A DNA stretch of 64,000 bases from Raillietiella orientalis (Eukaryota), in assembly GCA_036172245.1 (NCBI GenBank), contig JAYWIR010000026.1, positions 2,852,001 through 2,916,000 of the forward strand. Direction: 5' to 3'. The translations under genes were made by a program, and so were the position numbers. Positions 1 to 52,829 of the stretch are shown one piece after another. Position 1 is the first letter of the stretch. Every line of letters begins with the position of its first letter. A model generated the notes under the pieces. The model did not search any database. It saw only the letters and a program-made list of their open reading frames with translations, and had not been told where the DNA came from.

Positions 1-639
1 CGAGACGATTGCGGGGTGTCGGCTGTACTGGCAATGCGGCATCCGCAACACCTGCGGGGTCGCGTTCTTCGTGAAGCCGGCCATCGACGCTGCCGTGAAG
101 GGCGTGCGCTTCGATGACGACGGTCGGGTCGGTCAGCTGACTCTCGGCTGGTACGACTCGATCGATCTGATCGTCACGAATGTGTACGCCCCAACCGGTC
201 AAAAGGGATACAGCAACCGTACCAGGCTGCTTGAATCCCTGAAGCGCGACTGGCTGGCGAACACGAGCGTGCGGAAGGCTCACCTGATAGCGGGAGATTT
301 CAATCTCCGCCTGCTAACAGGTGAGCCGGAAACACAAGTGAACGCGATGAACGAGTTGTGCGCCGCCATGCGTGCGCGCAACTTGTTCGCAGGTGAGAGG
401 GGAATGGTCCGCAGCATCGACCACGTCTTCCTCGACGCTGACCTGTGTTCACCGGTCGGCAAACGGGGGAGGGTTGCGTCAACGTTCTCGGACCATTCCC
501 GGTTAACTTTTGAGATGCGGCCTCGCGACAAAGGACCGCCATCCAGGGACTGGCGTCTACCCTGGGACTGGACGCGACTCTCAGGTGCGAAGGAACACCT
601 TCGCGAATACCTGAGAGGCGTCACGCTCCGGAATCTCCA
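1..639 (+). mobile_element. Segment A: family-A ORF2 endonuclease domain, interrupted at 639
   Basis: ORF 71-643 with NVYAP, AGDFN, SIDHV and SDH. Homology ends at ...TLRNL, where the 3' end of antisense element B begins. Confidence 0.93.
623..639 (+). repeat. 17-bp target/TSD acgctccggaatctcca (variant 1)
   Basis: Identical to 17343-17359; 15/17 identical to 6171-6187 and 11706-11722. Confidence 0.9.
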
Positions 640-853
640 TTGAAACTTGGGTGCGCCGGGACGTTTATTCTAACGAATAAACTTATACAATCTGTGACTG
701 GACCAGTAGTCCAGCCACGCCCTGGAAAGATATAGCCTGCCGGGCTACCCGTGCGCAGACCGGCGCGGTCGACCTCGGCAGCAGAGGGGAGGGGGAACGA
801 AACAAAAAGAAAAGAAAAAAATCAACAAAAATCAGGGAGGGAGCGGCAAGGGA

Positions 854-3800
854 TCACAGTCTGCTTGGAGGGCCCGTCATCCTCTGGAGGATGCCGACAA
901 GCTGTTTCTGCTTGTGTGGTTCCAGATGGGGCCATCGCGTCGCCATCCTGAGGAAACGGGCAGCATACACGTTGGCATCCCTGTCGCTGGATCCTCCCGT
1001 CGCTTTGCTCCATGCCACGACGATCCCGCGTAGGCAGCACAGGGCTGCAAGCGAGGCCGCTGGAGGCAAGGCGTCACGGACGAAGAGAGGGCGCAAAGCG
1101 TCTCTGGGGTTGCCTCCGTGGATCCCCAGGGATGCGGCAAAGCGTTTCCACAAGGGACGGAGGGCAACACAATCCACTAACAGGTGGGGGAGGTATTCCC
1201 TCTCCCCGCACCTGACACAATTAGGGTTGACACCCCCCCGCGTCCAGTGGTGTCGGCGGGCGTTGCAAGGAAGCCCCCAATGCAACACCATCAGTGCCGA
1301 CTGTTGCCACTTCATGGGGAGGGTGCGCGAGTCCATGAGCACCGGAGGCCACTCGAGATGTTCCTCTGGAACATCCAGTAGCTCTCTTCAGCGCAAAAGT
1401 CCATTTGGGGTGGTCCTCGGGGTCGCAGCGTTGGTGAGCTGACCCGTTCTCCAATCCCCGATCTTCTTTTCCCTGCTGGCGATCTTCACAGTTACCTCCC
1501 ATTGTGCCGCGACGTCGCTGCCCACATGTTCCCGTAGGGTAGGCAGTACCGCAGCAAGGGAGGTTCTTTGTGCCCACGCTCTCCTTCGGGGATTCTCGAT
1601 GATTTCTCGGAGCGTGCGGCGGGCATGCGGCCCGAACAGAGCTATTCGCTCGTGTTGCGGGCTCTGCTCCTGAATCATCGCCCACGTGCGGACGGTTTCC
1701 TGCAACCAGGCAGGACCGTTCGCTGGGCGTACGAGGATCCGCGCCGAGTTGTTCTTCACGAGCTTGGCCGCCCTCCGAAGTTGAAGTCCGCAGTGGCAGA
1801 TGGGGCTTCCGAGTGCAAAGTAGGACGAGAGTCCCGCATTGCCGGTGGCCCGCTCGACGAGGAGACGTGCAGGGAGGCACCAAGGGGTGCACCAATTTCC
1901 TGCCATAAAGGCAACAACTCGGAACTGGAGCTGTAGCTCCAGCCGCTCCAACGTCAGGAGGCCCAGACCACCATCCCGACGAGGAGCGCACAAGTCCGAA
2001 AGACGGACTCGGGGCCTCCCTCTGCCCCAAAGGGCGATCCTCAGGAGGTCCTTCGTCCTCTTCTTTGACTCCGCTGAGGGGGGGCAAACAAAAAGCAAGA
2101 AGCGAAGGAGGGGGGCCGCAAACGCGTTCCACGCCGCGGCCCGTTCCTGCAGGTAGAACCTGCCGTCCTGGAACGGGCCGATCGCCGCCTAAGCCTTCTG
2201 AAGGTAGCCGGACCACGCTTCCGCAGGGGAGTAATCCCCCAACGGCACACCAAGGTACTTGAAGTACCTCACCGTGGGGATCCCCAAACGGACCCAGTCC
2301 TGCTGCCCTGCCCACGCCGCTCCGACTGGCATTACGGACGACTTCGCCCTGTTCACCGTCAGTCCTGTTCCCCGACTCAGCAGGTCGAAGAACTCCTCGA
2401 CCGCCGCAGCCGGGGTGGACATAGGCAGCAGCAGCAGAAGGTCGTCCGGGTACGCCGAAAGCGCAGGCGTACCGGGACAATCGCACGGCAGGTGCGCCAG
2501 AGTCTCCCTGTACGCTCTCAGCACCAATTCGCAATAGGCGCTGAAGAGCAAGGGGCTGAGGCTGTCTCCCTGCCGTATGCCGCGTCGCACCGGTACGCCG
2601 TGCACGGTGGATCCACTAAAAAAAACATTAATAAGCGCGTCGCGCCAGCTGGAACGCAGGTAGGCCAGCAAAGAGGCCGGGAAGCCCAAGCGTTCCAGAA
2701 GCTCCAGCAAGAGATTCTGGTCGACGCTGTCGAATGCTTTACGCAAGTCGACAGCGACCGCAAGGGCTCCCTTCCCCACCCGACCGTTCCGTCTCCCGCC
2801 AACGGACGCACCGGAATTCCGGCTGCTCAATAAGCCCCTTCCTTGTTGGAGCTCTAACCATGTGGAAGCGTGGAGCAGGTTGGCCTCCATGCTTAGCCCG
2901 GGAACAGCATAAGTCTGATCCGGGCTGATGAAGATGTTGGTAACCCGTCCCAGACGCTCTGCACACATCTTGGCTATTAACTTGGCGTCCGCATTCACTG
3001 TTGTGATGGGACGCCAGTTGTTCATGCTCCTTAGGTATCCTTCCTTCGGGAGGAGGCTCACCTTTGCTGAACGAAACGAGGTGGGAACCTCACCTGTCTC
3101 AGGAATCAGCAAGGTGAGTTGCTGTACCAGGGGGGTAAGCTCAGCCGCGAAAGTTTGCTAAAACTCCGCGGGCAGGCCGTCCTCCCCTGTAGCCTTCCGC
3201 CTCTTGAGCTTTCCGATGGCCGAGAGGATCTCGTCCATCGTGAAAGGCTCGTCGAGGCTTCTTTTCTCCTCCTCCCCGATCGCTGGAGCACCTTCCGGAA
3301 GCAGAAGTCGTGAGAAGTCTCGCTCCGGAGGCGCCCTGGCGTACAGGGAGGAGTAAAATTTCCTTACTATCCCGCGTTTCTGAGCGGGAACCGAGTGCTC
3401 CCGGCCCTAGTCGTCCATCAAGCTGGCCGACCCGGATTGCCAGGCTTGCCTCTCGGCTCCCGCTCGATACTCTGCTAACCTGCGCATGTCGGGGGTTCTC
3501 GCGTAACGTCGGGCCTGAAGATAGCACCTTTCGTTACGCGGCCCCTCCCCAAAACTCGCAGGTAGGCGATGCAGGGGGAACTGATCGCAGAACTCCTGGA
3601 CCGACCGCTTGAAGCGGTCCCAGTCCTCAAGTGTCTGCATCCTGAAGCTCCGAATAAACGCGCGGAGGTGCTCCGCCGCGTCGGGAAACTTCAGCCAGTC
3701 CCCTGGCAGACGCCACGCTGACGAGGGGGGGCCCCTGTCGCGCGGACACACTTCGAACATGATCCGACCATGGTCCGACAGCTCGGATGGTACCTTGCCG

Positions 3801-4432
3801 CGCCTGCCCACCCGAGAGCATAGGTGCTGATCAAGGTACACGTGATCGATGCTGCTTTCCATGGCCGTGTCCCCGGCCAACAAGTTGCGCGTGTTCATTT
3901 CTGCGCACAACTCGTTGACGCGGTCGTTCAGTGTATCCGGCGCACCTGAAAGCAGGCGCAGGTTGAAATCACTCGCGATCAGGTGCGCTTTGCGAACTCC
4001 GGCATCGGTCAGCCAATCGCATCTCAGGGCAAGGTAGAATTCGCTTCTTGCCTTCGCATTCAACGCGTTATTTCCGCTAGGAGCGTATAGGTTGGTGACG
4101 ACCAGGTCGATAGAGTCGGACCAGCTGAGAGTCAGCTGACCGACGCGACCTGCGTCATCGAACCGAACGTCCTTTATTGCGGTCTCGATGGCTGGCCGAA
4201 GCAGGAGCGACACCGCTTGATTTCGCATTGCCGCAACGCCACAACAACCGCCCACCCGAGATCCGGTCGATCTCCCGGGCTTGATCTGCGGAGATCACGT
4301 GGATCTCCTGCAGCAGCACAGTCGAGGATGCCAGAGATTGGCGGCCACGTCACGCCTCTTGCCGTCGTCGCTTAGCCCGTTCACGTTCCAACAGGCGATC
4401 AGAAGACGACGCCGAGAGGCGATTCCCGGCAT
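854..4432 (-). pseudogene. Element B ORF2 (APE-RT-zinc finger) with stops and frameshifts
   Basis: Fragments 3407-4255 (APE), 2189-3112 (RT; YADD changed to YPDD), 1388-2098 and 854-1342 (CVRCGERE..HLLVDC). Confidence 0.93.
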
Positions 4433-6088
4433 TATGGCTGGGAAAGTGGCGTCGCGGCACCTGCCGCGGGGCAGGTGTACGAAAGGTCCATCGGTACGAG
4501 GACCATCGGAACGAGGACGGAGGCCTCTTTAGGCGCCTGGGGTACCTGTTCGGCCTCCATCCTCACCATCCCCTGCGTGTCCGAGCGTGGAATTCTCTCG
4601 GGCGACGGGTCCCGGGAGTTTCCCACGCTCATGACACCCTCGCTACCGGAAGCCATCTCTTCCCCTTCGTCGGGGGAGACGATCTTCCGGGGCATTGTGG
4701 ACTTTCGTCCTGCCTTTTTGCGGGGTGACGCAGAGATGGATGCTGTGTTTCCGGCCTTCACCTCGTGTCGGAAGTGGCCGACTCCTGAGGGGAAGCCGGA
4801 CGCCTGACGGCCTTCTTGCCAGCCTTGGGGGCAACCGGCTGCAACGAGGCAGCTGGCTCCTCCGCGGCGCGCTCGAAGGCGACGTCATCGAGCGTAGGCT
4901 CGATGACGGACGCCGCCGCCTCGCTCCCCTCCTTGTTGACTTTGTCAACGGAGGGTTGAGCAGGGGCAGCAGCGAGTTCTTTAGCGCCGCATTCGTCGAT
5001 GGCGGGAATCCGCTCTACAACGACGCAGCAGCTTTTTATTTTATCGCGGCGCAGAGCGGTTTCGCTCAGTTTCGCCAAGTCCTTTCCCTTTTTATGGGAG
5101 TTTTTCTTGGGGTCGACCTTCTGCCACCCTGGCTCTTGACCCTCGCCCTCGACCTTTTCGGCGTGTTTCGCCGAGGTCTTGAGGCTGGCCTTCGCCTTGG
5201 TGGCGGAGGTGACCTCCTTAGGAGCAGCACGAGCTGCCAGCTTTTTTCTCTTTTTTGCCGCGCGCTTTCTCGCGTTTTCCGCAGACACGACGCGGACTGT
5301 GTTTTGGGGGCACACCAGACGGGTGTGCCCCGCTTGTTTGCATTGCTGGCACTGCACGCTCGGACACCTCATTTTAAGGTGACCAAAGCTGCTGCAGCAG
5401 CCGCAAAACTTGGGTTTCCCGACGTACCACACGTAAACGGATTCACCGTTGACGGTAAGTTTGTGAGAAACTCACATCCCTCGCAAACCGTCACTCGCGC
5501 TGCACCCAAGCCGCCAAGCACCCCGTCGTAATCGACAAAAGGAGTAGGCTTTCCCCACAGCGCGTGGACAGTTGCAAACTTTTCTAATTCGTTCCGGACG
5601 GCCTCCTTCGTCATCCGGAACGTGATACCGGTCAGGTGAACGATCACCGACCGGTCTTCAGTAATGGGGAGAAGCCTCCGGCTGCCCATAATTACGGGGG
5701 TTCGCAGAAGTCTCTGCGCAAAAGTTGCTTCCTTGCAGATAACTTCCACAAATTGACCCCCGCTTCTGACGGACATAGGCAGAAGCTCCTCTTTTTGTAC
5801 ACCCAGAACGCGCATCGCCTGAGAAAAGGCGCGCGCGTTCTCGGGAGAATATGAACCACCTACCTTATATAGAAGGGGTGGGTTATACCCCTCCTCCAGG
5901 TAAGCGCGCATTTCCGCCATAGCCGCTGGCGTAGGTGCCGCAGCCACGGCGTTCCAAGCCCTGAGTAGGGCCAAGGGCGCATCCATGCTGGCGGGAGCCT
6001 CCACTGATGCGGGAGCCCCCACCTCCATCTCCTCCGGGGGTAATGAGGTCATCGCCCCCGGATCCTCACCGGTGGTGGTATCAGGCAT
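4432..6088 (-). pseudogene. Element B ORF1 (gag-like, two CCHC knuckles), frameshifted
   Basis: MPDTTTGEDP start; knuckles CGCCSSFGHLKMRC and CQQCKQAGHTRLVC; split into three ORFs; stop TAA overlaps the ORF2 ATG (TAATG). Confidence 0.9.
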
Positions 6089-6170
6089 TGCTGCCGAATC
6101 CTCCACCCACACCACGCACAAGCACCAACGGAAATGAAACTCAGGAGCAACGAAAAGACACGTCCGCTCG

Positions 6171-6187
6171 ACGCTCCGCAGTCTCCA
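6171..6187 (+). repeat. 17-bp target/TSD acgctccgcagtctcca (variant 2) between tandem B and C
   Basis: Exact match to 11706-11722. Confidence 0.9.
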
Positions 6188-6400
6188 TTGAAACCCGGGT
6201 GCGCCGGGACGTTTATTCTAACGAATAAACTTATACAATCTGTGACTGGACCAGTAGTCCAGCCACGCCCTGGAAAGATATAGCCTGCCGGGCTACCGGT
6301 GCGCAGACCGGCGCGGTCGACCTCGGCAGCAGAGGGGAGGAGGACCGAAACAAAAAGAAAACAAAAAATAAACAAAAATCAGGGAGGGAGCGGGAAGGGA

Positions 6401-9400
6401 TCACAGTCTGCTGGGAGGGTCCGTCATCCTCTGGAGGATGCCGACAAGCTGTTTCTGCTTGTGTGGTTCCAGATGGGGCCATCGCGTCGCCATCCTGAGG
6501 AAACGGGCGGCATACACGTTGGCATCCCTGTCGCTGGATCCTCCCGTCGCTGTGCTCCATGCCACGACGATCCCGCGTAGGCAGCACAGGGCTGCAAGCG
6601 AGGCCGCTGGAGGCAGGGCGTCACGGACGAAGAGGGGGCGCAAAGCGTCTCTGGGGTTGCCTCCGGGGATCCCCAGGGCTGCGGCAAAGCGTTTCCACAA
6701 GGGACGGAGGGCAACACAATCCACTAACAGGTGGGGGAGGTATTCCCTCTCCCCGCACCTGACACAATTAGGGTTGACACCCCCCCGCGTCCAGTGGTGT
6801 CGGCGGGCGTTGCACGGAAGCCCCCAATGCAACACCATCAGTGCCGACTGTTGCCACTTCATGGGGAGGGTGCGCGAGTCCATGAGCACCGGAGGCCACT
6901 CGAGATGTTCCTCTGGAACATCCAGTAGCTCTCCCCAGCGCAAAAGTTCATTTGGGGTGGTCCTCGGAGTCGCAGCGTTGGTGAGCTGACCCGTTCTCCA
7001 ATCCCCGATGTTCTTTGCCCTGCTGGCGATCTTGACAGTAACCTCCCATTGTGCCGCGACGTCGCTGCCCAGATGTTCCCGTAGGGTAGGCAGTACCGCA
7101 GCAAGGGAGGTTCTTTGTGCCCACGCTCTCCTTCGGGGATTCTCGATGATTTCTCGGAGCGTGCGGCGGGCATGCGGCCCGAACAGAGCTATTCGCTCGT
7201 GTTGCGAGCTCTGCTCCTGAATCATCGCCCACGTGCGGACGGTTTCCTGCAACCAGGCAGGACCGTTCGCGGGGCGTACGAGGATCCGCGCCGAGTTGTT
7301 CTTCACGAGCGTGGCCGCCCTCCGAAGTTGAAGTCCGCAGTGGCAGATGGGGCTTCGGAGTGCAAAGTAGGACGAGAGTCCCGCATTGCCGGTGGCCCGC
7401 TCGACGAGGAGACGTGCAGGGAGGCACCAAGGGGTTCACCAATTTCCTGCCATAAACGCAACAACTCGGAACTGGAGCTGTAGCTCCAGCCGCTCCAACG
7501 TCAGGAGGCCCAGACCACCATCCCGACGAGGAGCGCACAAGTCCGAAAGACGGACTCGGGGCCTCCCTCTGCACCAAAGGGCGATCCTCAGGAGGTCCTT
7601 CGTCCTCTTCTTTGAATCCGCTCAGAAGTAGCAAACAAAATGCAAGGGGCGAAGGAGGGGTGCCGTAAGCGCGTTCCACGCCGCGACCCGTTCCTGCAGG
7701 TAGAACCTGCCGTCCTGGAACGGGCCGATCGCCGCCTGAGCCTTCTGAAGGCAGCCGGACCACGCTTCCGCACGGGAGTAGTCCCCCAACGGCACACCAA
7801 GGTACTTGAAGTACCTCACCGTGGGGATCCCCAAACGGACCCAGTCCTGCTGCCCTGCCCACGCCGCTCCGACTGGCATTACGGACGACTTCGCCCTGTT
7901 CACCGTCAGTCCTGTTCCACGACTCAGCAGGTCGAAGAAGTCCTCGACCGCCGAGGCCGGAGTGGACATAGGCAGCAGCAGCAGAAGATCGTCCGCGTAC
8001 GCCGAAACCGCAGGCGTACCGGGGCAATCGCACGGCAGGTGCGCAAGAGTCTCCCTGTACGCTCTCAGCACCAATTCGAAAAGGCGCTAAAGAGCAGGGG
8101 GCTCAGGCTGTCTCCCTGCCGTATGCCGCGTCGCACCGGTACTCCGTGCACGGTTTGCCCGCTGAAAAGAACATTAATGAGCGCGTCGCGCCAGCTGGAG
8201 CGCAGGTAGGCCAACAAAGAGGCCGGGAAGCTCAAGCGTTCCAGAAGCTCAAGCAGGAGATTCTGGTCGACGCTGTCGAATGCTTTACGCAAGTCGACAG
8301 CGACCGCAAGGGCTCCCTTCCCCACCCAACCGTTCCGTCTCCCGCCAACGGACGCACCGGAATTCCGGCTGCTCAATAAGCCCCTTCCTTGTTGTAGCTC
8401 TAACCATGTGGAAGCGTGGAACAGGTTCGCGTCCATGCTCCGCCCGGGAACAGCATAAGTCTGTTCCGGGCTGAAGAAGATGTTGGCGACCCGTCCCAGG
8501 CGCTCTGCCCACATCTTGGCTATCAACTTGGCGTCCGCATTCACTATTGTGATGGGACGCCAGTTGTTCATGCTCCTTAGGTCTCCTCCGTTCGGGAGGA
8601 GCCGCACCTTTGCTGAACGAAACGAGGTGGGAACGTCACCTGTTTCACGGATCAGCAAGGTGAGCTGATGTACCAGGGGAGTAAGCTCAGCCGGGAAAGT
8701 TTGGTAAAACTCCGCGGGCAGGCCGTCCTCCCCTGGAGCCTTCCGCCTCTTGAGCTTTCCGATGGCCGAGAGGATCTCGTCCAGCGTGAAAGGCTCGTCG
8801 ATGCTTCTTTTCTCCTCCTCCCCGATCTCTAGAGCACCTTTTGGAAGCAGAAGTCGTAAGACGTCTCGCTCCAAAGGCGCCCTGGCGTACAGGGAGGAGT
8901 AAAATTTTCCTACTATCCCGCGTTTCTGAGCGGGAACCGAGTGCTCCCGGCCCTGGTCGTCCAGCAAGCTGGCCGATCCGGATTGCCAGGCTTGCCTCTC
9001 GGCTCCCGCTCGGTACTCTGCTAACCTGCGCATGTCGGGGGTTCTCGCGTAACGTCGGGCCTGAAGATAGCACCTTTCGTTACGCGGCCCCTCCCCAAAA
9101 CCTGCAGGTAGGCGATGCAGGGGGAACTGATCGCAGAACTCCTGGACCGACCGCTTGAAGCGGTCCCAGTCCTGAAGTGTCTGCATCCTGAAGCTTCGAA
9201 TAAACGCGCGGAGGTGCTCCGCCGCGTCGGGAAACTTCAGCCAGTCCCCTGGCAGACGCCACGCTGACGAGGGGGGGCCCTTGTCGCGCGGACGCACTTC
9301 GAACATGATCCGACCATGGTCCGACAGCTCGAATGGTACCTTGCCGCGCCTGCCCACCCGAGAGCATAGGTGCTGATCAAGGTACACGTGATCGATGCTG

Positions 9401-9981
9401 CTTTCCATGGCCGTGTCCCCGGCCAACAAGTTGCGCGTGGTCATTTCTGCGCACAACTCGTTGACGCGGTCGTTCAGTGTATCCGGCGCACCTGAAAGCA
9501 GGCGCAGGTTGAAATCACCTGCGATCAGGTGCGCTTTGCGAACTCCTGCATCGGTCAGCCAATCGCGTCTCAGGGCAAGGTAGAATTCCCTTCTTGCCTT
9601 CGCCCTCAACGCGTTATTTCCGCTAGGAGCGTATAGGTTGGTGACGACCAGGTCGATAGAGTCGGACCAGCTGAGAGTCAGCTGACCGACGCGACCTGCG
9701 TCATCGAACCGAACGTCATTTATTGCGGTCTCGATGGCTGGCCGAAGCAGGAAGGCGACACCGCTTGATTTCGCGGTGCCGCAACGCCACAACAGCCGCC
9801 CACCCGAGATCCGTTCGATCTCCCGGGCTTGATCTGCGGAGATCACGTGGATCTCCTGCAGCAGCACCAGGTCGAAGGATGCCAGGGTGGCGGCCACGTC
9901 ACGCCTCTTGCCGTCGTCGCTTAGCCCGTTCACGTTCCAACAGGCGATCAGAAGACGACGGCGAGAGGCGATTCCCGGCAT
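6401..9981 (-). pseudogene. Element C ORF2 (APE-RT-zinc finger), few disablements
   Basis: 638-aa ORF 8065-9981 (ACWNVNG, LQEIH, GDFN, SDH, KAFD, QGDSLSP); frameshifts near 8080 and 7625; stop near 7436. Confidence 0.93.
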
Positions 9982-11623
9982 TATGGCTGGGAAAGTGGCG
10001 TCGCGACACCTGCCGCGGGGCAGGTGTAGGAAAGGTCCATCGGTACGAGGACGGAGGCCTCTTCAGACGCCTAGGGTACCTGTTCGGCCTCCATCCTCAC
10101 CATCTTCTCCGTGTCGGAGCGTGGAATTCACCCGGGCGACGGGTCCCGGGAGTTTCCCACGCTCATGGCACCCTCGCTACCGGAAGGCATCTCTTCCCCT
10201 TCGTCGGGGGAGACGATCTTCCGGGGCATTGTAGACTTCCGTCCTGCCTTTTTGCGGGGTGCCGCGGAGATGGATGCTGTGTTTCCTGCTTTCACCTCGG
10301 CGTCAGAAGTGGCCGACTCCTGAGGGGAAGCCGAACGCCTGACGGCCTTCTTGCCAGCCTTGGGGCAACCGGCTGCAGCGAGGCAGCCAGCTCCTCCGCG
10401 GCGCGCTCGAAGGCGACGTCATCGAGCGTGGGCTCCATGACGGACGCCGCCGCCGCGCTCCCCTCCATGTTGACTTTGTCAACGGAGGGTTGAGCAGGGG
10501 CAGCAGCGAGTTCTTTAGCGCCGCATTCGTCGATGGCGGGAATCCGCTCTACAACGACGCAGCAGCTTTTTATTTTATCGCGGCGCAGAGCGGTTTCGCT
10601 CAGTTTCGCCAAGTCCTTTCCCTTTTTATGGGAGTTTTTCTTGGGGTCGACCTTCTGCCACCCTGGCTCTTGACCCTCGCCCTCGACCTTTTCGGCGTGT
10701 TTCGCCGAGGTCTTAAGGCTGGCCTTCGCCTTGGTGGCGGAGGTGACCTCCTTAGGAGCAGCACGAGCTGCCAGCTTTTTTCTCTTTTTTGCCGCGCGCT
10801 TTCTCGCGTTTTTCGCGGACACGACGCGGACGGTGTTTTGGGGGCACACCAGACGGGTGTGCCCCGCTTGTTTGCATTGCTGGCACTGCACGCTCGGACA
10901 CCTCATTTTAAGGTGACCAAAGCTGCTGCAGCAGCCGCAAAACTTGGGTTTCCCGACGTACCACACGTCAACGGATTCACCGTTGACGGTAACTTTGTGG
11001 GGAAACTCACATTCCTCGCAAACCGTCACTCGCGCTGCACCCAAGCCGCCAAGCACCCTGTCGTAATCGACAAAAGGAGTAGGCTTTCCCCACAGCGCGT
11101 GGACAGTTGCAAACTTTTCTAATTCGTTCCGGACGGCCTCCTTCGTCATCCGGAACGTGATACCGGTCAGGTGAACGATCACCGACCGGTCTTCAGTAAT
11201 GGGGAGAAGCCTCAGGCTGCCCATAATTACGGGGGTTCGCAGAAGTCTCTGCGCAAAAGTTGCCTCCTTGCAGATAGCTTCCACAAATTGACCCTTGCTT
11301 CTGACGGACATAGCCAGAAGCTCCTCTTTTTGTACACCGAGAACGCGCATCGCCTGCGAAAAGGCGCGCGCGTTCTCGGGAGAATATGAACCACCTACCT
11401 TATATAGAAGGGGTGGGTTATACCCCTCCTCCAGGTAAGCGCGCATTTCCGCCATAGCCGCTGGCGTAGGTGCCGCAGCCACGGCGTTCCAAGCCCTGGG
11501 TAGGGCCGGGGGCGCATCCGTGCTGGCGGGAGCCTCCAGTGATGCGGGAGCTCCCACCTCCATCTGCTTCAAGGGCAATGAGGTCATCGTTCCCGGATCC
11601 TCACCGGTGGTGGTATCAGGCAT
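9981..11623 (-). pseudogene. Element C ORF1, frameshifted in its 3' part
   Basis: 443-aa ORF 10292-11623 with two CCHC knuckles; TAATG overlap at 9979-9983. Confidence 0.9.
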
Positions 11624-11687
11624 TTCTGCCTAATCCTCCACCCACACCACGCAAGAGCACCAACGGAAATGGAACTCAGGAGCAACG

Positions 11688-11729
11688 AAAAGGCACGTCC
11701 GCTCGACGCTCCGCAGTCTCCAAGACTGG
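11688..11729 (-). promoter_or_regulatory. Putative Inr + DPE core promoter spanning the C/target junction
   Basis: CCAGTCT (A at 11727, in the host sequence) and GGACG at 11700-11696, i.e. +28 to +32. The GACGT motif recurs at the 5' ends of B, E, G, J, L and M. Function is inferred. Confidence 0.5.
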
Positions 11730-14700
11730 GACCTCTTCAAGGCCTCGTTCCGCGAGTTCTGCGAGGAGTTTCCCCTGCTTGCCTGCCCCCCGGATTCTGG
11801 GAGGGGGCTCGGAACCATCGGGCTTATCTACAGGCCCGCCGGTACGAGAGGACTCCGAATGTCCGTCGCCTCGCGGAATATCAAGCCGGGGCCGAACGCC
11901 AAGCCTGGCAATCCGGGTCGGCCAGCTTGCTGGACGACCAGGGCCGGGAGCGATCCGCCCCACCCGCGATCAGGCACCTCGTGCGACGTTATTACTCCTC
12001 CCTCTACGCTAGGGCACCCCCAGAGCGGAACGCCTCAAGGCTCCTGCTCCCGGATGGAGCCCCGGCAATAGGGGAGGAGGAGAAGATCAGCCTCGACGAG
12101 CCTTTTTCTACCGGTGAAATTCTCGCCGGTATTAATAGGCTCTAGAGGCGAAAGGCGCCAGGGGAGGATGGCCTGCCTGCGGAATTCTTCCAATGTTTCG
12201 CAACAGAGCTGGCACCCCTGGTGCTTCAGTTGACCGGGCTGATGCGAGACGAAGGCGACGTTCCCGCCTCGTTTCGGTCAGCCCATGTGAGGCTCCTTCC
12301 GAAGGGAGGAGACCTGAGATCCCTAGGCAACTGGCGTCCGATCACAATTGTGAATACGGACGCCAAGCTCATCGCTGGTTTGTGGGCTTCCCGTTTAGGA
12401 CAGGTGGCAGACTCCATAATTAGCCCTAAGCAGACATACGCTGTTCCCGGGCGAAGTATGGATGCCAACCTGTTCTTCGTGAGCACATGGTTCCATGTGC
12501 AACGCTGCCTGAATGAAACTGGCGGAAAGATTGGCAACCTCACTTTGGGGCCGCCAGACGGGCTGAGAATGGACACATGGGCTGGGAAGGGGCCCTAGCG
12601 ATCGCGGTCGATCTCCATAAGGCGTTCGACTGCTTTGACCAGGAGCTACTGTTGGAGCTCCTGGGTCGCACGGGCTTCCCACCCTCCCTTCTCTCCTTCC
12701 TGCGCTCCTGCTGGCGCAACGCCATAATTAACATCTGTTTCTCCAGCCAACAGGTGTACGGCGTGTCGGTGCGGCGGGGCATACGGCAGGGCGATAGCCT
12801 CAGTCTCCTGCTCTTTAGCACCTACTTTGTGTTGGTGCTGAGAGCGTACAGGGTGACTTTGGCTGCCCTGCCCAGCTCGTGCCCCGGCCCCCCCGCCGTA
12901 GCAGGATACGCCGACGACCTTCTGCTCATGTTGCCCATGTCCGCCCCGGCAGCCGCAGTCGAGGATTTCTTCGACCTGCTAAGTCGTGGGACTGGACTGC
13001 GGGTAAACAAGGCGAAGTCGTCGGTCGTACCGGTGGGTGCGACGTGGGTCGGACGGCCTGACTGGATCCGCTTGGGGATCCCCGCGGCCAGGTACCTGAA
13101 GTACCTGGGTGTCCCGTTGGGGGACTTCTTCCTCGCAGAAGCCTGGTCAGGTCGTCTCCAAAAGGTAGAGTTGGCAATCGGCCCGTACCTGGAAGGCAAG
13201 TTCCTTCTGCCGGAACGGGCCGCGGTGTGGAACGCTTCCGCGGCTCCCATCCTCCGCCCCCTGCTTTTTGTGTGCTTCGTCCCCCGTGACATTAAAAAGA
13301 GGACAAAAGACCTACTCCGCATCGCCCTCTGGGGCAGCGGGAGGCCACGTGTGCCTCTGGATGATTTATGCGCTCCTCGTCGGGACGGCGGTCTCGGCCT
13401 CCTGACGCTGGAGCGCCTGGAAATACAGCTGCGATGGCGCACCCTCGCCATCGCAGCAAAGTCATGGAGCACCCCTTGGTGCGCTCCGGCCCGAATCCTC
13501 GCCAGCCGTGTGTCCAGGACGCAAGGACTCGCGTCGTTCCTTCTGTGCTCCGGCAGGAAGGTGAGAAGATGCGGCCTTCTTCTTGGGCGCATGGAAGCCC
13601 TGGTCAGAGACAACTGCTGGACGGTATGCAGCTTCGCCAACTCCTCCGCCTGGCTGGAGGAATCAGTTGCGACGTGGGCCAAGCTGAACCTCCAGACTTC
13701 CCCGGACTGGAACCGCCTGCGATTCGGCCCCAACGCCCGCTGCACACTGCGGACTACTCTGGAGTGTCCCGTCAGGAGCGCGTGGGCGGAGACCACTTCT
13801 CTAGCTTCGACCCTGCCCTTCCTCCGGAGGGCTTTAACCAGCGGCCGCAAGCCAAAGTGGCAAGTCTCCTGCCGAATCGCAGGCAAGGAGAAGAAGATGA
13901 GCGGTTGGACCATGGGAGAACTGGCGGATGCCACGACCCCGAGTGCCCTCCCTCGTGGACTTCGTCGATAGGGCGAGCTGCTCGGCATCCCGACGGATGA
14001 CCTGAAGTGGCCCCCAATACTGATAGGATCCAGGCTTCTCCCCCTGAAGTGGCAAGAGTCGGCGCTGCTGCTGTTGCACTGGGGTCTACCCTGCAACGCG
14101 CAACGCTTCCACTGGACACGGGGGAGTGTAAGGTCTGAGTGTGCCAGGTGTGGGGAGCGAGAATCGCTCCCCCACCTACTAGTTGACTGTGCTGCCCTCC
14201 GACCCCTGTGGGAACGGTTCGGGACGACCTTCGGGCTCCCAATGGGCAGCGCGCCCAGAGACGTTCTTCGGCACCTCTTCGTGCGGCACGCCCTGCAGCC
14301 CGCCGCAGCCCTCGCAGCCCTCTGCTGCATCCGGGGCATCGTGGCGGCATGGAGCGACATTCGCGACGAAGGAGTGGATGCCAACGTGAGGGATGTCATG
14401 CCGTATGCGGTCTGCTTCATGCGGAGAGCAGCGAGATGGCCACATCTGGGAAACATGAAGATGGACCTAGAGGGCATCCTGCGAAGGATGGACCCTCCTC
14501 TAAGTGGATTGTGATCCCTTCCTCTCCCTCCAAACTCTTTTTTTTGCTTTCCTTATCTTTATTTTTCTTTTTGTTTTGATACCTATCCCCCTCCACTGCC
14601 GAGCAGCGTCACGCCGGGCTACGTCTCGGCGTCCCGGCAGGTCCGGTGTCGTGTGGCCGTTAGTGGGGCCTCGTACCACGTTTATGCAGAGTTTTTTCAA

Positions 14701-14732
14701 TAAACGCCCCGGGCGTACCCGGGTGGCAACCT
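11706..14732 (+). mobile_element. Segment D: 3' half of a family-A element (linker-RT-zinc finger-3' UTR)
   Basis: Resumes ORF2 as TLRSLQDWDLFK straight after C; RT in ORF 12577-13971 (DLHKAFD, YADD); finger in 14074-14514; AATAAA 14699-14704 and terminal hairpin. Confidence 0.94.
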
Positions 14733-17342
14733 AAAATCCCGCAGGTAGGCGATGCAGGGGGAACTGATCGCAGAACTCCTTGACCGACCGCTTGAAGCGG
14801 TCCCAGTCCTAAAGTGTCTGCATCCTCAAGCTCCGAATAAACGCGCGGAGGTGCTCCGCCGCGTCGGGAAACTTCAGCCAGTCCCCTGGCAGACGCCACG
14901 CTGACAAGGGGGGGCCCTTGTCGCGCGGACGCACTTCGAACATGATCCGACCATGGTCCGACAGCTCGGATGGTACCTTGCCGCGCCTGCCCACCCGAGA
15001 GCATAGGTGCTGATCAAGGTACACGTGATCGATGCTGTTTTCCATGTCCGTGTCCCCAACCAACAAGTTGCGCGTGTTCATTTCTGCGCACAACTCGTTG
15101 ACGCGGTCGTTCAGTGTATCCGGCGCACCTGAAAGCAGGCGCAGTTTGAAATCACCTGCGATCAGGTGCGCTTTGCGAACTCGTGCATCGGTCAGCCAAT
15201 CGCGTCTCAGGGCAAGGTAGAATTCCCTTCTTGCCTTCGCCCTCAACGCGTTGTTTCCGCTAGGAGCGTATAGGTTGGTGACGACCACGTCGATAGAGTC
15301 GGACCAGCTGAGAGTCAGCTGACCGACGCGACCTGCGTCATCGAACCGAACGTCCTTTATTGCGGTCTCGATGGCTGGCCGAAGCAGGTAGGCGACACCG
15401 CTTGATTTCGCGGTGCCGCAACGCCACAACAGCCGCCCACCCGAGATCCGTTCGCTCTTCCGGGCTTGATCTGCGGAGATCACGTGGATCTCCTGCAGCA
15501 GCACCAGGTCGAAGGATGCCAGGGTGACGGCCACGTCACGCCTCTTGCCGTCGACGCTTAGCCCCTTCACGTTCCAACAGGCGATCAGAAGACGACGGCG
15601 AGAGGCGATTCCCGGCATTATGGCTGGGAAAGTGGCGTCGCGGCACCTGCCGCGGGGCAGGTGTACGAAAGGTCCATCGGAACGAGGACGGAGGCCTCTT
15701 CAGGAGCATGGGTACCTGTTCGGCCTCCATCCTCACCATGCCCTCCGTGTCCGAGCGTGGAATTCTCTCGGGCGACGGGTCCCGGGAGTTTCCCACGCTC
15801 ATGGCACCCTCGCTACCGCTAGCCATCTCTTCCCCTTCGTCGGGGGAGACGATCTTCCGGGGCATTGTGGACTTTCGTCCTGCCTTTTTGCGGGGTGCCG
15901 CGGAGATGGATGCTGTGTTTCCGGCCTTCACCTCGGGGTCGGAAGTGGCCGACTCCTGAGGGAAAGCCGGACGCCTGACAGCCTTCTTGCCAGCCTTGGG
16001 GGCAACCGGCTGCAGCGAGGCAGCGAGCTCCTCCGCGGCGCGCTCGAAGGCGACGTCATCGAGCGTGGGCTCGATGACGGACGCCGCCGCCTCGCTCACC
16101 TCCTTGTTGACTTTGTCAACGGAGGGTTGAGCAGGGGCAGCAGCGAGTTTTTTAGCGCCGCATTCGTCGATGGCGGGAATCCGCTCTACAACGACGCAGC
16201 AGCTTTTTATTTTATCGCGGCGCGGAGCGGTTTCGCTCAGTTTCGCCAAGTCCTTTCCCTTTTTATGGGAGTTTTTCTTGGGGTCGACCTTCTGCCACCC
16301 TGGCTCTTGACCCTCGCCCTCGACCTTTTCGGCGTGTTTCGCCGAGGTCTTGAGGCTGGCCTTCGCCTTGGTGGCGGAGGTGACCTCCTTAGGAGCAGCA
16401 CGAGCTGCCAGCTTTTTTCTCTTTTTTGCCGCGCGCTTTCTCGCGTTTTTCGCGGACACGACGCGGACTGTGTTTTGGGGGCACACCAGACGGGTGTGCC
16501 CCGCTTGTTTGCATTGCTGGCACTGCACGCTCGGACACCTCATTTTAAGGTGACCAAAGCTGCTGCAGCAGCCGCAAAACTTGGGTTTCCCGACGTACCA
16601 GACGTCAACGGATTCACCGTTGACGGTAAGTTTGTGGGGAAACTCACATTCCTCGCAAACCGTCACTCGCGCTGCACCCAAGCCGCCAAGCACCCCGTCG
16701 TAATCGACAAAAGGAGTAGGCTTTCCCCACAGCGCGTGGACAGTTGCAAACTTTTCTAATTCGTTCCGGACGGCCTCCTTCGTCATCCGGAACGTGATAC
16801 CGGTCAGGTGAACGATCACCGACAAGTCTTCAGTAATGGGGAGAAGCCTCCGGCTGCCCATAATTACGGGGGTTCGCAGAAGTCTCTGCGCAAAAGTTGC
16901 CTCCTTGCAGATAACTTCCACAAATTGACCCTTGCTTCTGACGGACATAGCCAGAAGCTCCTCTTTTTGTACACCGAGAACGCGCATCGCCTGAGAAAAG
17001 GCGCGCGCGTTCTCGGGAGAATATGAACCACCTACCTTATATAGAAGGGGTGGGTTATACCCCTCCTCCAGGTAAGCGCGCATTTCCGGCATAGCCGCTG
17101 GCGTAGATGCCGCAGCCACGGCGTTCCAAGCCCTGAGTAGGGCCAAGGGCGCATCCATGCTGGCGGGAGCCTCCACTGATGCGGGAGCCCCCACCTCCAT
17201 CTCCTCCGGGGGCAATGAGGTCATCGCCCCCGGATCCTCACCGGTGGTGGTATCAGGCATTGCTGCCTAATCCTCCACCCACACCACGCAGAAGCACCAA
17301 CGAAAATGGAACTCACGAGCAACGAGAAGACACGTCGGCTCG
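14733..17342 (-). mobile_element. Segment E: 5' half of a family-B element (ORF1 + APE), cut by D
   Basis: Near-identical to the 5' halves of B and C; ORF1 from 17260 almost intact; ORF2 from 15618 breaks at HRLPAGF. Confidence 0.95.
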
Positions 17343-20300
17343 ACGCTCCGGAATCTCCAGGACTAAGACCTTTTTAAGGAATCGGTCCGGGAGTTCTGCG
17401 AGCAGTTCCCCCTGGATCGCCTGCCCCCCGGATTCGGCGAGGGTGCTCGCAACCATCGGGTTTATTTACAGGCTCGTAGGTACGAGCGAACTTCTAATGT
17501 CCTTCGCCTCGCCGAGTACCGCGCCGGGGCCGAACGCCAAGCCTGGAAATCCGGGTCGGCCAGCTTGCTGGAAGACCCGGGCCGGGAATGTTCGTGTGCG
17601 GCGTCGGTGCGGCATCTCGTGCGGAGTCATTATTCCTCCCTTTACGCCAGGGCGCCCCCGGATCAAGATGCCTCTCAGCTCTTGCTTAAGGATGGTGCTG
17701 CGGCAATAGGGGAGGAGGAGAAGATCAGCCTCGACGAGCCTTTTTCCACCGGAGAAATTCTCGCCGGTATCGAACGGCTCAAGAGACGGAAAGCTGCAGG
17801 GGAAGACGGCTTGCCCGCGGAGTTCTATCAGAGCTTCGCGGAAGAGCTGACACCCCTGCTGCTTCAGCTGACAAGGCTGATCCGAGACGAAGGCGATGTT
17901 GCCGCCTCGTTTCGGTCAGCCAGAGTGAGGCTCCTTCCGAAAGGAAGAGACCTTAGGAATTTGAACAACTGGCGTCCGATCACGATTGTGAATACGGACG
18001 CCAAGTTGGTTGCCGGGCTATGTGCTTCGCGTCTGGGGCATGTGGCAGAATCCATTATTAGCCCGGAGCAGACATATGCTGTTCCCGGGTGAAGTATGGA
18101 TGCCAACCTCTTCTTCGCGAGCACATGGATGCACGCGCAGAGGTGTCAAAAGGAAGGGAAAGAAAAAATCGGCAACCCCACTTTATGGCCGCCAGCTGGG
18201 CAGGGAATGGACTCCCGGGCGGGGAAGGGGGCCTTAGCGCTCGCAGTCGATCTCCATAAGGCGTTCGACTGTGTTGACCAGGGGCTTTTGTTGGAGCTCC
18301 TGGGTCGCATGGGCTTCCCACCCTCCTTGATCAACTACCTGCGCTCCTGCTGGTGCGATGCGATAATTTCCGTCTCTTTTAGCAGTCAGAAGGTGCATGG
18401 CGTGCCGGTGCGGCGGGGCATAAGGCAGGGAGATAGCCTGAGTCCCCTGCTCTTCAGCACCTACTTTGAGTTGGTGCTGAGAGCGTACAGGGTGACTTTG
18501 GCCTCCTTGCCGAGCTCGTGTGCCGGCACGCCCGCCGTGGCAGCCTATGCCGACGACCTTCTGCTCCTGTTACCTATGTCCACCCCGGCGAAGGCGGTCG
18601 GAGACTTCTTCGATCTGCTCAGCCGTGGGACCGCACTGCAGGTCAACAGGGCGAAGTCGTCGGTGGTGCCAGTAGGTGCGGCGTGGGCAGGGCAGCAGGA
18701 CTGGGTCCGTCTCGGGATCCCCACGGCGAGGTGCCTCAAGTACCTTGGTGTGCCGTTGGGTGACTATTCCCCTGAGGAAGCGTGGTCCAGCTGTCTTCAA
18801 AAAGTTGAGACGGCGATCGGCCCGTTCCTGGAAGACAAGTTTCTTCTTCCGGAACGGGCCGCGGTTTGGAACGCCTTCGCGGCTTCCATTCTCCGCTTCT
18901 TGCTTTTTGTTTGCCCCGCATCAGGAGTAGTTAAAAAGAGGACGAAGGACCTCCTCCGCATCGCCCTTTGGGGCAAGGGGAGGCCCCGAGTCCCTCTGAA
19001 GGACTTGTGCGCTCCGCATGGGGATGGTGTCCTTGGCCTCCTGACGCTAGAACGCGTGGAAATTCAGCTGCGGTGTCGAACCCTCGCCATCGCAGCGAAG
19101 ATGTGGAGGACCCCTTTGTGCGTTGCGGCCCGCCACCTCGCCAGGCGTGTGTCCCGGTGCGAAGGACTCGCGTCGTTTCTTCTGTGCCCAGGCCGGAAGA
19201 TTCGATGATGCGGTCTACTGCTCGGCCGTATGGCAACCCTGGCGAAGGAGAACGACTGGATGGTTTGTGGCCTTGCCAACTCCTCCGCTTGGCTGGAATT
19301 GACTGCTGGCACCTGGGCCAAGCACAACCAGAGGTGCGAAGACCGGATGAACTGCCTGCAAGTCGGCTTTTACGCCCGTTGAACTCTCCGTGAAATTCTT
19401 GAATTTCCACCGAGTTGCACGTGGGCGGAAGGGACACCCCTTGCTACGGCGATGCCCTACCTCCTGAGGGCGCTTCAGGATCGCCAGAAGCCGAGGTGGC
19501 AAGTCACCTGCCAGATCGCAGGCAGGGAGAAGATGTTAAGCGGCTGCACCACAGGAGAACTGGCGGACGCCACGACCCCGAGCGTCCAGCCGCGTGGATT
19601 AATGAGATAAGGCGAGCTGCTCGCCATCCCTACGGATGTGCTGAAGTGGCCCCCGGTACTAAAGGAATCCAGGATCCTGCCCCTTAAGTGGCAAGAGTCG
19701 GCGTTGCTACTGCTGCACTGGGGCTTACCCTGCAACGCACGCCGCTTCCACTCGACAAGGGGAGGTGTGGATCCTGAGTGTGTCAGGTGCGGAGAGTGGG
19801 AATCGCTCTCCCACCTTATTGTGGACTGTGCTGCCATCCGACCCCTCTGGGAACGGTGCCGGGCGACCCTCGGGCTCCCTACGGGCAGCACTCCCAGAGA
19901 CGTTCTTCGGCCCCTCTTCGTGAAGGACCCACTGCAGCCAGTTGCAGCCATCGCAGCCTTGTGCTGTGTCCGTGGCATCGTGGCGGCATGGAGCGACGCC
20001 AATAACAAAGGAGTGGGTCCACTCGCAAGGAATGTCATCCCATACGCCCAGCGCTTCATGCGGAGAGCTGCCGGATGGCCCCAACTGGGGAATATACGGA
20101 CGGACCTCGAGGCCTTCCTTCAACGGATGGGCCCTCCTCACAGCGTTAAGTGATCCCTTCCCTGCCCTCCAACTTCTTTTTGTCTGTTTATTTTTTTATT
20201 TTTCTTTTTGTTTTATTCCCATCCCCCTTCGCTGCTGAGGAACGCTACGCTGGGCTGCGTCCCGGCGTCCCGGCAGGTCCAGTGCATATTGCCGTGAGCG

Positions 20301-20367
20301 GGGCCTTGTACCGCGGATGTAGAGTTTTTTAAAAATAAACGCCCCGGGCGTACCCTGGTGTAAACCT
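17343..20367 (+). mobile_element. Segment F: 3' half of a family-A element, disabled ORF2
   Basis: Begins with the 17-bp target (17343-17359); RT in ORF 18096-19208; finger in 19638-20153; AATAAA 20334-20339 and the same terminal hairpin as D. Confidence 0.94.
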
Positions 20368-20380
20368 CCAAGGCCAGTTG

Positions 20381-21650
20381 GAGGACGTGTTTTTCCTTCA
20401 CTCCTGAGAGGGTAGTAGGAAAACGCTTTCTTGTGTGTGGTGTTTTGTGTACATCGTCGGTGTCCAATGGCCACGACGCCAGAGGACACCGCGATGGAGG
20501 TGGGAGTGGGGTAGGCTAGTTCGCCCCCACAGCCTACTGGAGCAGGGGCAGCCGCCCTGGAATCATCCATGGGCACGCCGAGGACATGGAGAGCCATGGT
20601 GGCCGCGCAAAGCGCAGAAGCCATGGCGGAGATGGCCGCATACAAGGCCTCCGGGAACAAGCCATCGCTTGTCTACCAGGTAGGAAACTTGTTCGACGGT
20701 CGGACAGCGCGCGCCTTCAGCAAAGCGTTGAAGGACGCGAATGTTACTGAGAAGAATCTGGACGGCCTCTCCGCCCTCAGCGGCGGGCAGCGGGTCGAGG
20801 TGGTCTGCAAAGATGTCACCTTGGCTCACCGCCTAATCCATTCGCCGCTGAACGTAGACGGCCGCAAGATCCTGCCAGTATCAATGGACCGCTCCGTTGT
20901 GGTCCACATGACTGGCATCACCAGCCGCATGACGTGGTCAGGGGCTGGTGAGGAATTACAAAAGTACGGTGAGGTGCACGCACTGTGGCCGAAACCCTCC
21001 ATTTTCGACGGCTTTGATAGCCTTTTTGGTGGGCAGGCTGCATCGCGGGTCACCGTAAGGGAAAATTGTGGGCTTCCTCACAAACTACAGGTGGCGCAAG
21101 AAAACGTCGACCTGTGGTATTTAGGGAAGCCCCGGTATTGCGGGCATTGTGATACCATGGGACACCTACGTAAAAGGTGTCCCAATATACAATGCCATTT
21201 GTGCGGGGAGCGGGGCCACGTTTGGCGCGTGTGCCCCAAACGCCTTACCCCGGTTCCCCCTGCCGCGAAAAAAGCGCAGGGAAAACGTGCTTCAAAGGTC
21301 TCTAGACCTAAAGTAGAAAAGGGCCAGCACAAGCTGCCAACACCTCAACCTCCGGAGCGTAAGCCGGAGGATAATCCTTCTGAAAAGGTGGAAGGCGAAG
21401 AGGGATGGCAGCTTGTAGAGGCCAGAAAGCCTAAGAAACTCCCACCCGCGGAGAGCAAAGAGCGCAAGACGGCCGGAAAGCCGAAAAAACCCGGTCCGCG
21501 CTCGAAAACTCTGCGCGAGTGCACGGTGGCACTGGAACGAATCGTCGTTCCCAAGATTGCCACCCGGAGCGTCGATATTCCCCTTGCCGTTTCCGCTGCG
21601 CTTGAGGCTCGCGACGGCGAACCCTCTGTTTACACAGAGGGTGAGCGGTG
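20381..21650 (+). mobile_element. Segment G: 5' end and ORF1 (two CCHC), tandem behind F, probably family A
   Basis: GGACGTGTTTTT at 20383; ORF1 from ATG 20467 (early TAG at 20512) homologous to B ORF1; knuckles CGHCDTMGHLRKRC and CHLCGERGHVWRVC. Family assignment inferred from the tandem position. Confidence 0.85.
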
Positions 21651-27130: not shown

Positions 27131-27310
27131 GCCGAGTCGGTGAACTTGCTCCGCGGCTCGAAGTATTGTGCGCTTGACAACTTAATCAGTTCATTGTGCT
27201 CGTGTGTGCCCGGAAAGGGGAAGTTTTCCAGAAGAAACAAAAAAAGAAGCGGCGAGGAGATCGCGGCAAAAGACCTGCAGTGGTCCCGTGCAGCAAGACC
27301 AGCTGCCAGG

Positions 27311-29127: not shown

Positions 29128-29140
29128 GTCTTCCCCTTTT

Positions 29141-32650: not shown

Positions 32651-32787
32651 AAAGCAGAACTCTAGTGCAACCCAAGGACCCCCAAGTGCAAAATGTTTGT
32701 ATTGAGTGAATGAGAGTGCGAATGTAAATTTTGTATTTTTATAGAAAAATGAACTTACCCCACCCCTTGTGGGACTTGGGGAAACCT

Positions 32788-37100: not shown

Positions 37101-37478
37101 GAGCAAGGCTACGGGAGGATAACACGACCATAGTGCCATCCAGCCTGCCTCCCAGTTACTGAGGAGGGCGTCCCGATGGCCCCACCTGGATCCAGGAATA
37201 CAGAAGGAGCTTGCCGGCATCCTGCAAAGGATGCAACGGCCCCACCAGCAAGTGTGATCCCTTCCCTTACCCTCCCAACTTTCTTTTCTTTTTTGTTTTG
37301 TTTTTTTTTTTTTTTTCCCCGTTCCCCCTGCTGCCGTGGTGGACCGTACCGGTCTGGGAACCGGTGACCCGGCAGGCTCTGTGTTTCTTCATGCGTGGCT
37401 TGAGCAATGGTCCAGCCACCGCACGTCTTTGTAAAATTTTATTTCACAATAAAAGCTCCGGCGAAATCCGGGTGAAAA
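34148..37478 (+). mobile_element. Segment K: chimeric ORF2 (family-B endonuclease + family-L RT and 3' end) with an internal deletion
   Basis: Starts mid-APE (EIERIS); near-identical to B up to 35183, then L-like; AATAAA 37448-37453. Confidence 0.9.
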
Positions 37479-37494
37479 TCTACTGCCTTGCGTG

Positions 37495-52610: not shown

Positions 52611-52829
52611 TTTTAGTCTCCTCTGTTAGTCAGTTTACACGTGGAAAAAGATGTGAGATACGAGTGCAAAACATTTTGATTGACTTCAACGTTAGAGATA
52701 CTTTTCTAATTCGTTGCAAAGGATCACGGGATACGATACTTTCAAGCTTTGTGGATATCTCTCCTTTCTGTGCCAGCTTTCCGGAGGGAGGCTAGTTACA
52801 AATTTTGTTACCCGTAATAGGTGACCTTC

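Follow-up and report, generated by a model that had tools for sequence, protein, structure and literature searches.

A conserved GACGTG box at the 5' ends of nested L1-type LINEs in Raillietiella orientalis, and an initiator-like target motif 27 nt before it at one insertion site

Seven LINE 5' ends in a 64,000-nt stretch of Raillietiella orientalis DNA (contig JAYWIR010000026.1, positions 2,852,001 to 2,916,000 of the forward strand; the whole stretch is called the window here) share a short box. The octamer RGACGTGY was found inside the 5' ends of the copies B, C, G, J, L and M, and copy E has CGACGTG; RGACGTGY is the only block kept among 5' UTRs that have otherwise diverged. The reading that we prefer, and to which we give about an even chance of being right, is that the elements carry in the box a 5' promoter or end signal of their own, working without an initiator in the flank, and that the endonuclease sets the site and the orientation of insertion. 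A first-pass annotation of the same DNA had proposed a split promoter, in which the element brings a motif resembling a downstream promoter element (DPE) at +28 and the target brings the initiator (Inr). The anatomy that it described and its analogy with Drosophila LINEs stand; its claim of selection or function is not supported, and five of the 5' ends do not fit.

The window has about 60% G+C and, from position 1 to about 50.7 kb, is made of non-LTR retrotransposons in both orientations. This region is a nest of five related L1-type LINE families inserted into one another (Table 1). Their ORF2 encodes an AP-endonuclease domain followed by a reverse transcriptase and is preceded by an ORF1, as in L1-type elements. 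Exo_endo_phos and RVT_1 were detected in the ORFs 8065-9981(-) and 29036-32650(+), the latter of 1204 aa (RVT_1, 2.2e-33; Exo_endo_phos, 5.2e-18). Human L1 ORF2p is the closest solved relative (E 7.4e-53), R2 reaching only 2.1e-26. In the protein database, 54 proteins matched at E up to 0.001, the closest of them unnamed and with no more than 22-31% identity. The ORF1s carry CCHC knuckles and are homologous across the families, that of J being 37% identical to that of family X (E 3e-46) and 31% identical to that of G (E 8e-39). Family X, about 5.5 kb long, and family L are each other's nearest relatives (about 73% identical). The G+C content, about 60% in the nest, is 40-49% beyond 50.7 kb, and this drop marks the edge of the LINE cluster. 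An MSH2-like exon (51891-52625(-); MutS_V, 1.9e-48) follows, 48-54% identical to animal MSH2, and all named proteins among the 120 matches listed for it are animal.

Table 1. Positions of the LINE copies, their 5' boxes and their target sequences in the window.
Feature	Position	Strand	Remark
A, part of family Y copy	12-622	+	upstream of X insertion site
B, family X, full length	640-6170	-	tandem behind C; duplication copies 6171-6187 and 623-639 at flanks; box 6165-6159
C, family X, full length	6188-11705	-	ORF1 open (445 codons); ORF2 in at least 3 frames
Box of C, GGACGTGC	11693-11700	-	would be DPE (+28 to +35) if start at 11727
X's own 5 nt, CGAGC	11701-11705	-	between target duplication and box; same in B, C and E
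Target-site duplication, 17 bp, 5' side of C	11706-11722	.	identical to 6171-6187
CCAGTCT in target of C	11723-11729	-	A at 11727; complement of Gln-Asp-Trp codons of Y ORF2
D, 3' part of older family Y copy	11723-14731	+	target of C; 78.7% identical to F
E, family X, first ~2.6 kb only	14734-17342	-	box CGACGTG 17337-17331; target duplication 17343-17359; flank TTAGTCC 17366-17360
F, 3' part of another family Y copy	17360-20366	+	target of E
G	20383-27129	+	followed by duplication TGCCGAGTCGGTGA, then H
Box of G, GGACGTGT	20383-20390	+	16 nt past 3' end of F
H, 5'-truncated	27144-32786	+
J, 5' part only	ends at 34153	-	abuts X-like K1 starting at 34154
Box of J, AGACGTGT	34137-34130	-	own 16-nt leader 34153-34138
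K1 joined to K2	34154-35183; 35185-37480		K1 96% identical to X; K2 L-like
L	spacer region 37481-37503, to 43059	+	preceded by K2 3' end (37480)
Box of L, GGACGTGT	37504-37511	+	after 23-nt spacer from 37481
M	about 43057 to 46930	-	L 3' end joins M at 43059/43060
Box of M, GGACGTGC	46918-46911	-	own 12-nt leader 46930-46919
O, flank, M-like LINE	from 46931	+
GCAGTCGAAG in target of P	49317-49326	+	complement of Phe-Asp-Cys codons, conserved reverse-transcriptase motif of antisense LINE
P, L-like, 5'-truncated	49331-50712	+	behind antisense LINE piece 48841-49328
LINE 3' ends	640-669(-), 6188-6217(-), 14699-14731, 20334-20366, 37448-37480, 43027-43059, about 27090-27129, about 32745-32786
Array duplications	623-639, 6171-6187, 11706-11722, 17343-17359; G/H: 27130-27143, 32787-32800

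The layers of the nest alternate in orientation: M(-) holds K and L(+), which hold J(-), which holds G/H and Y(+); the latter hold X(-), which holds a second Y(+), which in turn holds B and C(-). The outer layers would have their left halves outside the window, beyond position 1. Each insertion with an identifiable host LINE (window 1-47000) is antisense to that host. Where copies follow one another head to tail (C then B, G then H, K2 then L), successive units are separated by a copy of the target duplication. K is chimeric (34154-37480), X-like until 35183 and 85% identical to L from 35185, with about 320 nt of the common frame skipped; template switching in reverse transcription or recombination is a possible origin. 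At the 3' ends, AATAAA (in some copies AATAAG or AAATAAAA) is accompanied by a hairpin rich in G+C, and the element closes with a short A-rich tail such as ...TTTCAA, ...AAACC or ...AAAATC, with no poly(A) run. The ORF1s of G and H contain 27-nt tandem repeats (21822-21888; 27436-27639), the copy number of which differs between the two.

Family X is target-specific in this sample of one window, where its copies lie at the same site, in one orientation and with a constant 17-bp duplication. The duplicated 17-mer occurs four times in the window, against 0.78 expected, and its copies form two perfect pairs nested like brackets (623-639 with 17343-17359; 6171-6187 with 11706-11722) which differ from each other at 2 of 17 positions. 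With the X copies taken out, the reading frame runs from A through a single copy of the 17-mer into D (or F) and across a conserved Gln-Asp-Trp-Asp, a stretch also present at the homologous place of X and L ORF2. The conserved Asp-Trp codons of Y, GAC TGG, have as their complement the CCAGTC seen beside C, and the flank of E reads TTAGTC because TGG has decayed to TAA in F. Many G-to-A/C-to-T differences separate F from D near the junction, TGG to TAA among them, suggesting a deamination-type decay of the old Y copies as far as the two sequences tell. The X site adjoins the conserved Gln-Asp-Trp stretch of Y, between the endonuclease and reverse-transcriptase domains. In D, the target (11714-11728) is palindromic across the nick, with 6-bp arms and 3 nt between them (plus strand, CAGTCT-CCA-AGACTG); the A/F-type site (…GGAATC…) is without it.

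C and E are identical at 2521 of 2608 aligned positions (96.7%) and their targets D and F at 2362 of 3003 (78.7%). This pattern fits independent insertions of C and E at the same nucleotide of two Y copies, in both cases antisense. The duplications of C match at 17/17 positions, so that in such arrays a new copy seems to come in upstream of its predecessor, the intact boundary being nicked again. For the array, we infer that C inserted just upstream of B, re-using the intact boundary between flank and duplication, and that a deletion between X copies took the left part of the element to which D belongs. Neither an empty X target site nor a second copy of the G/H target was found elsewhere in the window.

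GACGTG is invariant in 7/7 aligned 5' ends, in which the mean column identity is only 56%, and base 8 of the box is a pyrimidine in all seven. RGACGTG occurs 24 times in the whole window, against 15.8 expected, and conservation of the box at the 5' ends is beyond chance. The box lies 5 nt from the element boundary in B, C and E, 12 nt in M and 16 nt in J, with upper limits of 16 nt for G and 23 nt for L; the earlier figure of about 10 nt was therefore roughly right (5-16 nt, with L at most 23). The boxes that the first-pass annotation listed as (G/A)GACGTG in B, C, G, J, L and M, and as CGACGTG in E, were all recovered (B at 6165, G at 20383, J at 34137, L at 37504 and M at 46918). The pattern GACGTG-NN-TT-N10-CC with one mismatch gave 7 matches against 4.35 expected, five of them at the seven known 5' ends and none at a new end, and a degenerate 25-nt pattern derived from the X 5' end matched 0 stretches in metagenome contigs. 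No Rfam family, self-cleaving ribozymes included, was detected at the 5' ends at the gathering threshold, with permissive settings for 11300-11800 or in the whole window at E up to 5, a search which covers known families only. Predicted 5' folds had z-scores from -0.8 to -3.0 over six sequences and no hairpin was common to all. A shared 5' hairpin was rejected, only 2/6 folds having a z below -2 and L being without it. In the predicted folds of J and M the box can pair with a downstream CG-rich stretch, and G makes a longer stem.

A LINE must carry its promoter within its transcript, and for this reason Drosophila LINEs use an Inr together with a DPE. The nest elements are L1-type by their ORF2, unlike jockey, Doc, F, G and I, which belong to other LINE clades than L1. 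A paper on TART gives a downstream promoter element A/G-G-A/T-C-G-T-G/T-C/T at about +29 to +36 of these five Drosophila elements, where the same octamer as here is kept near the 5' end across families with differing UTRs (PMC1636488). This octamer consensus (PMC1636488) is matched 8/8 in six of the seven boxes; on this match, the comparison with the Inr and DPE of Drosophila LINEs made in the first-pass annotation is apt. The DPE itself is described as RGWYV(T), spanning +28 to +33 and strictly spaced relative to the initiator A (PMC5580651). GGACGT or AGACGT is found in six of the seven 5' ends and CGACGT in E. The motif ten element (MTE) CGANC at +18 to +22 is absent in C, in which CGAGC stands at +23 to +27; from the revised MTE only CGG at +27 to +29 fits in C (PMC5580651). 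In the Drosophila LINEs the box lies at about +29 to +36 and the initiator is made of the element's first bases, whereas here the box lies 5-16 nt in, which leaves no room for an element-borne initiator at -27. The nearest precedent for a start-proximal box is the F element, for which the same paper reports an extra octamer copy nearer the start site (PMC1636488).

The spacing between box and flank was then compared across the 5' ends. On the minus strand of C, GGACGTG (11700-11694) is preceded by CCAGTCT (11729-11723), the A of which, at 11727, places the first G of GGACG at +28; E has TTAGTCC (17366-17360, A at 17364) and CGACGTG (17337-17331) with the same spacing. Both sets of coordinates agree with the first-pass annotation, and so does the origin of the flank of C, which is host-derived target sequence with the 17-bp duplication. 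Because C and E lie at the same site of homologous Y copies, their equal spacing counts as one observation. Counting back 27 nt from the box, B, G and M have T, J has G, and C, E and L have A; the present context of L at -27, AAAATCT, is not an initiator. Over the seven 5' ends, an initiator with its A at -27 was found as YYANWYY in 2/7 (C and E only), as TCAKTY in 0/7 and as CA in 1/7, and B, G, J, L and M in their present flanks have no Inr-like heptamer in the +28 register. The boundaries of J and M are sharp, that of J because its flank K1 is 96% identical to X; with 16 nt in J and 12 nt in M before the M-like flank, the leaders are too short for an initiator at -27, and the flanks offer none. 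The annotated lack of fit of B and M was borne out; the weak fit given for J was not, this end having a G at -27 and no initiator.

The background frequency per position and strand is 0.0032-0.0034 for CAGT and 0.0041-0.0045 for YYANWYY, so the chance of at least one match in six junction types is 0.019 and 0.024, respectively. CAGT was found in register at 11 of the 2714 RGWYV words of the window, and at 2 of its 24 RGACGTG, namely C and an internal site at 32297(-). At this internal AGACGTG (32291-32297(-)), antisense in H ORF2, the A of CAGT lies 27 nt upstream; the register can arise without any 5' end. The +28 initiator exceeds chance only weakly. Enrichment of the Inr-GACGT spacing, the criterion set in the first-pass annotation, was absent from the seven 5' ends of the window, and a selected or functional split geometry is not supported, C and E representing one target site and their Inr being the complement of GAC-TGG codons.

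A second case concerns family L. At its 3' end L meets M within a reverse-transcriptase motif that is conserved (complement of Ala-Phe-Asp-Ser/Cys-Val codons). P occupies the equivalent position in a second antisense, M-like LINE, and the two copies have this one site in common. Judged from these junctions, families X and L appear to target conserved coding motifs of related LINEs. The upstream flank of P ends in GCAGTC (49317-49322). By analogy with C and B, the 23-nt spacer of L should be a duplication plus the element's own leader, and when a P-type flank is put before this spacer, the A of CAGT falls at -27; the earlier proposal that a target like that of P (gcAgtcgaag, 49317-49326) puts CAGT at +1 was thus reproduced in the reconstruction. 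X and L reach 27 by different sums, 5+17+5 and 4+23. The result for L and P is not independent of that for C, since X and L are the closest relatives and CAGTC is 0-1 nt from the nick and coding-derived in both. CAGTC may be part of what the related X and L endonucleases recognise. Beside the one visible 3' junction of family Y (D in E), no CAGTC was found.

According to the preferred reading, transcription would start at or close to the element boundary and the box would act as a 5'-terminal promoter or 5'-end recognition element without a flank initiator. Family X nicks one site in Y ORF2, in antisense orientation, giving the 17-bp duplication. Because the X site adjoins the GAC TGG codons of Y, each X copy there has CCAGTC fixed 27 nt before its box, and site-specific nicking beside conserved codons would be the simpler cause of the spacing coincidence. 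Selection of site and orientation through the promoter, as first put forward, is not needed, a sequence-specific endonuclease giving perfect duplications, re-used sites and tandem arrays. We infer both the start position and what the box binds. Several findings go against this reading. The elements' own leaders vary in length and sequence between families, which is odd for a core-promoter element placed from a start at the boundary. If the octamer is a true DPE with strict spacing, the start has to lie about 27 nt upstream, outside every element (leaders of 5-16 nt). The chance of about 0.02 for the match in C is not negligible evidence, and X at the Y site (observed) and L with a P-type flank (reconstructed) both give CAGT at +1.

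These last points lead to the split promoter, which we consider unlikely: the element would bring the DPE-like half at +28 and the target the initiator, with a start at 11727, 22 nt outside X. Equally doubtful are two consequences of this arrangement, an RNA beginning with 5 nt of flank and the 17-nt target repeat, and expression limited to copies at the right site and in the right orientation. The main argument keeping the proposal alive is that the box is too near the boundary for an internal initiator at -27. The geometry in C is exact, CCAGTC matching 5/6 of TCAGTY and GGACGT 6/6 of RGWYVT, but T at -2 is present in neither target and the E version is without CA. The 8/8 match of six of the seven copies to the Drosophila LINE DPE consensus, (PMC1636488) and the CGG at +27 to +29, as in the revised MTE (PMC5580651), also speak for it; the DPE consensus is that of Drosophila, and the host need not use DPEs. 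The neighbouring MSH2 exon has, among the matches listed, only animals as named relatives, and DPEs are documented from animals (PMC5580651). A target-derived RNA leader would help precise 5' joining, as is discussed for R2 and for SINEU mobilised by Tx1 (PMC4494074). L with a P-type flank gives an A at -27, so that the idea may be widened, with no better prospect, to both families. X and L would then carry only the downstream half of an Inr/DPE promoter, the antisense complement of Asp-Trp or Asp-Cys codons would give the initiator in the +1/+28 arrangement, and the leader and nick offsets would compensate each other (5+17+5 = 4+23 = 27). On the other side, the evidence comes effectively from one target type and one sister-family reconstruction, and CAGTC, 0-1 nt from the nick and the complement of GAC-TG(G/C) codons, could be endonuclease recognition. 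J and M, whose boundaries are sharp and which lie antisense within LINEs, show no initiator at -27, nor do B, G and L at present. Moreover, the X copies examined are all degenerate, C ORF2 being split over three frames.

It is quite improbable that the elements have no core promoter of their own and depend on read-through, either from antisense transcription of the host LINE or, in the manner of HeT-A, from an upstream 3' end, the box acting at another step. [quoted passage not shown] At four of the eight 5' junctions (B, G, H and L), the 3' end of another LINE, with AATAAA and hairpin, stands 14-23 nt ahead, and since these are half of the junctions, HeT-A-like tandem promotion keeps some probability. 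HeT-A starts in the 3' end of the upstream element (PMC1636488). Target-specific LINEs which rely on flanking transcription are known (R2), and for SINEU, flank-initiated copies lying opposite in a transposon are described (PMC4494074). Against read-through, no Rfam family was found at the 5' ends at any threshold used, the 5' folds are neither consistently stable nor alike, and the match of the box to a promoter consensus at the DNA level would be a coincidence.

Finally, it is highly improbable that one segmental duplication of 5.6 kb (9097-14732 versus 14734-20367), which would say nothing of insertion preference, made both C and E: the blocks align end to end with 86.9% identity over 5645 nt and E stops exactly where the 3' end of D begins, but the X halves are 96.7% and the Y halves 78.7% identical, when one event should give equal divergence, and the block duplications differ at 2/17 positions, each pairing perfectly with a partner elsewhere. 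This origin was rejected on the unequal divergence and the 17-mer pairing, which point instead to nested insertions followed by a deletion between X copies, a probable history.

Comparison with known systems gives parallels for single features of the nest. Tx1 in Tx1D, Tx1-Mar in Mariner-N4 and Keno in U2 genes are L1/Tx1 LINEs with sequence-specific insertion into another repeat, as here; the likeness is one of insertion behaviour, and the nest targets are coding motifs of sister LINE families, unlike the targets of the Tx1 group. In human L1, also L1-type, accurate initiation from the 5' UTR requires a short motif that follows +1 within a few bases, and the motif differs from the one found here. 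This human L1 site, the YY1 box, is a start-proximal factor site which positions initiation. R2 has a restriction-like endonuclease, is transcribed by Pol I read-through and carries a self-cleaving ribozyme, unlike the nest LINEs, which have an AP-type endonuclease and no ribozyme found at their 5' ends in the Rfam search. For R2/R1, site-specific LINEs, the RNA 5' end can include target sequence which helps 5' joining, as cited in PMC4494074. The same paper reports SINEU-2 copies lying opposite in a mariner transposon and apparently transcribed from the 5' flank, and its author holds that flank-dependent transcription can reinforce target specificity (PMC4494074). In SINEU/Tx1 the flank contributes an entire promoter or read-through, whereas a split promoter would take from it only one half of a core promoter, at fixed spacing. 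HeT-A, "promoting in tandem", initiates in the 3' end of the upstream element (PMC1636488), and in the nest arrays, too, an upstream 3' end lies just before the next 5' end. The latter differ in coming from re-use of one internal target site, with a copy of the duplication between the units. Keyword searches of the literature, in the portions of text which they returned, gave no description of a LINE core promoter divided between element and target.

The octamer known from Drosophila LINEs is thus found here at the extreme 5' edge of target-specific LINEs of the L1 type, too near the boundary for an internal initiator, which raises the question of whether site-specific LINEs hand half of their core promoter to the target. 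There is little evidence that the two halves act together as a single promoter. If they did, transcription of a copy would have to wait for its correct insertion in antisense, the first 22 nt or so of its RNA would be target sequence that also guides 5' joining, and completion of the promoter would link expression to correct integration in a new way. If the box acts alone, it would be a start-proximal LINE promoter or a 5'-end element in L1-type LINEs, extending the insect LINE motif to them. The antisense targeting of conserved coding motifs of relatives bears on the growth of such LINE clusters.
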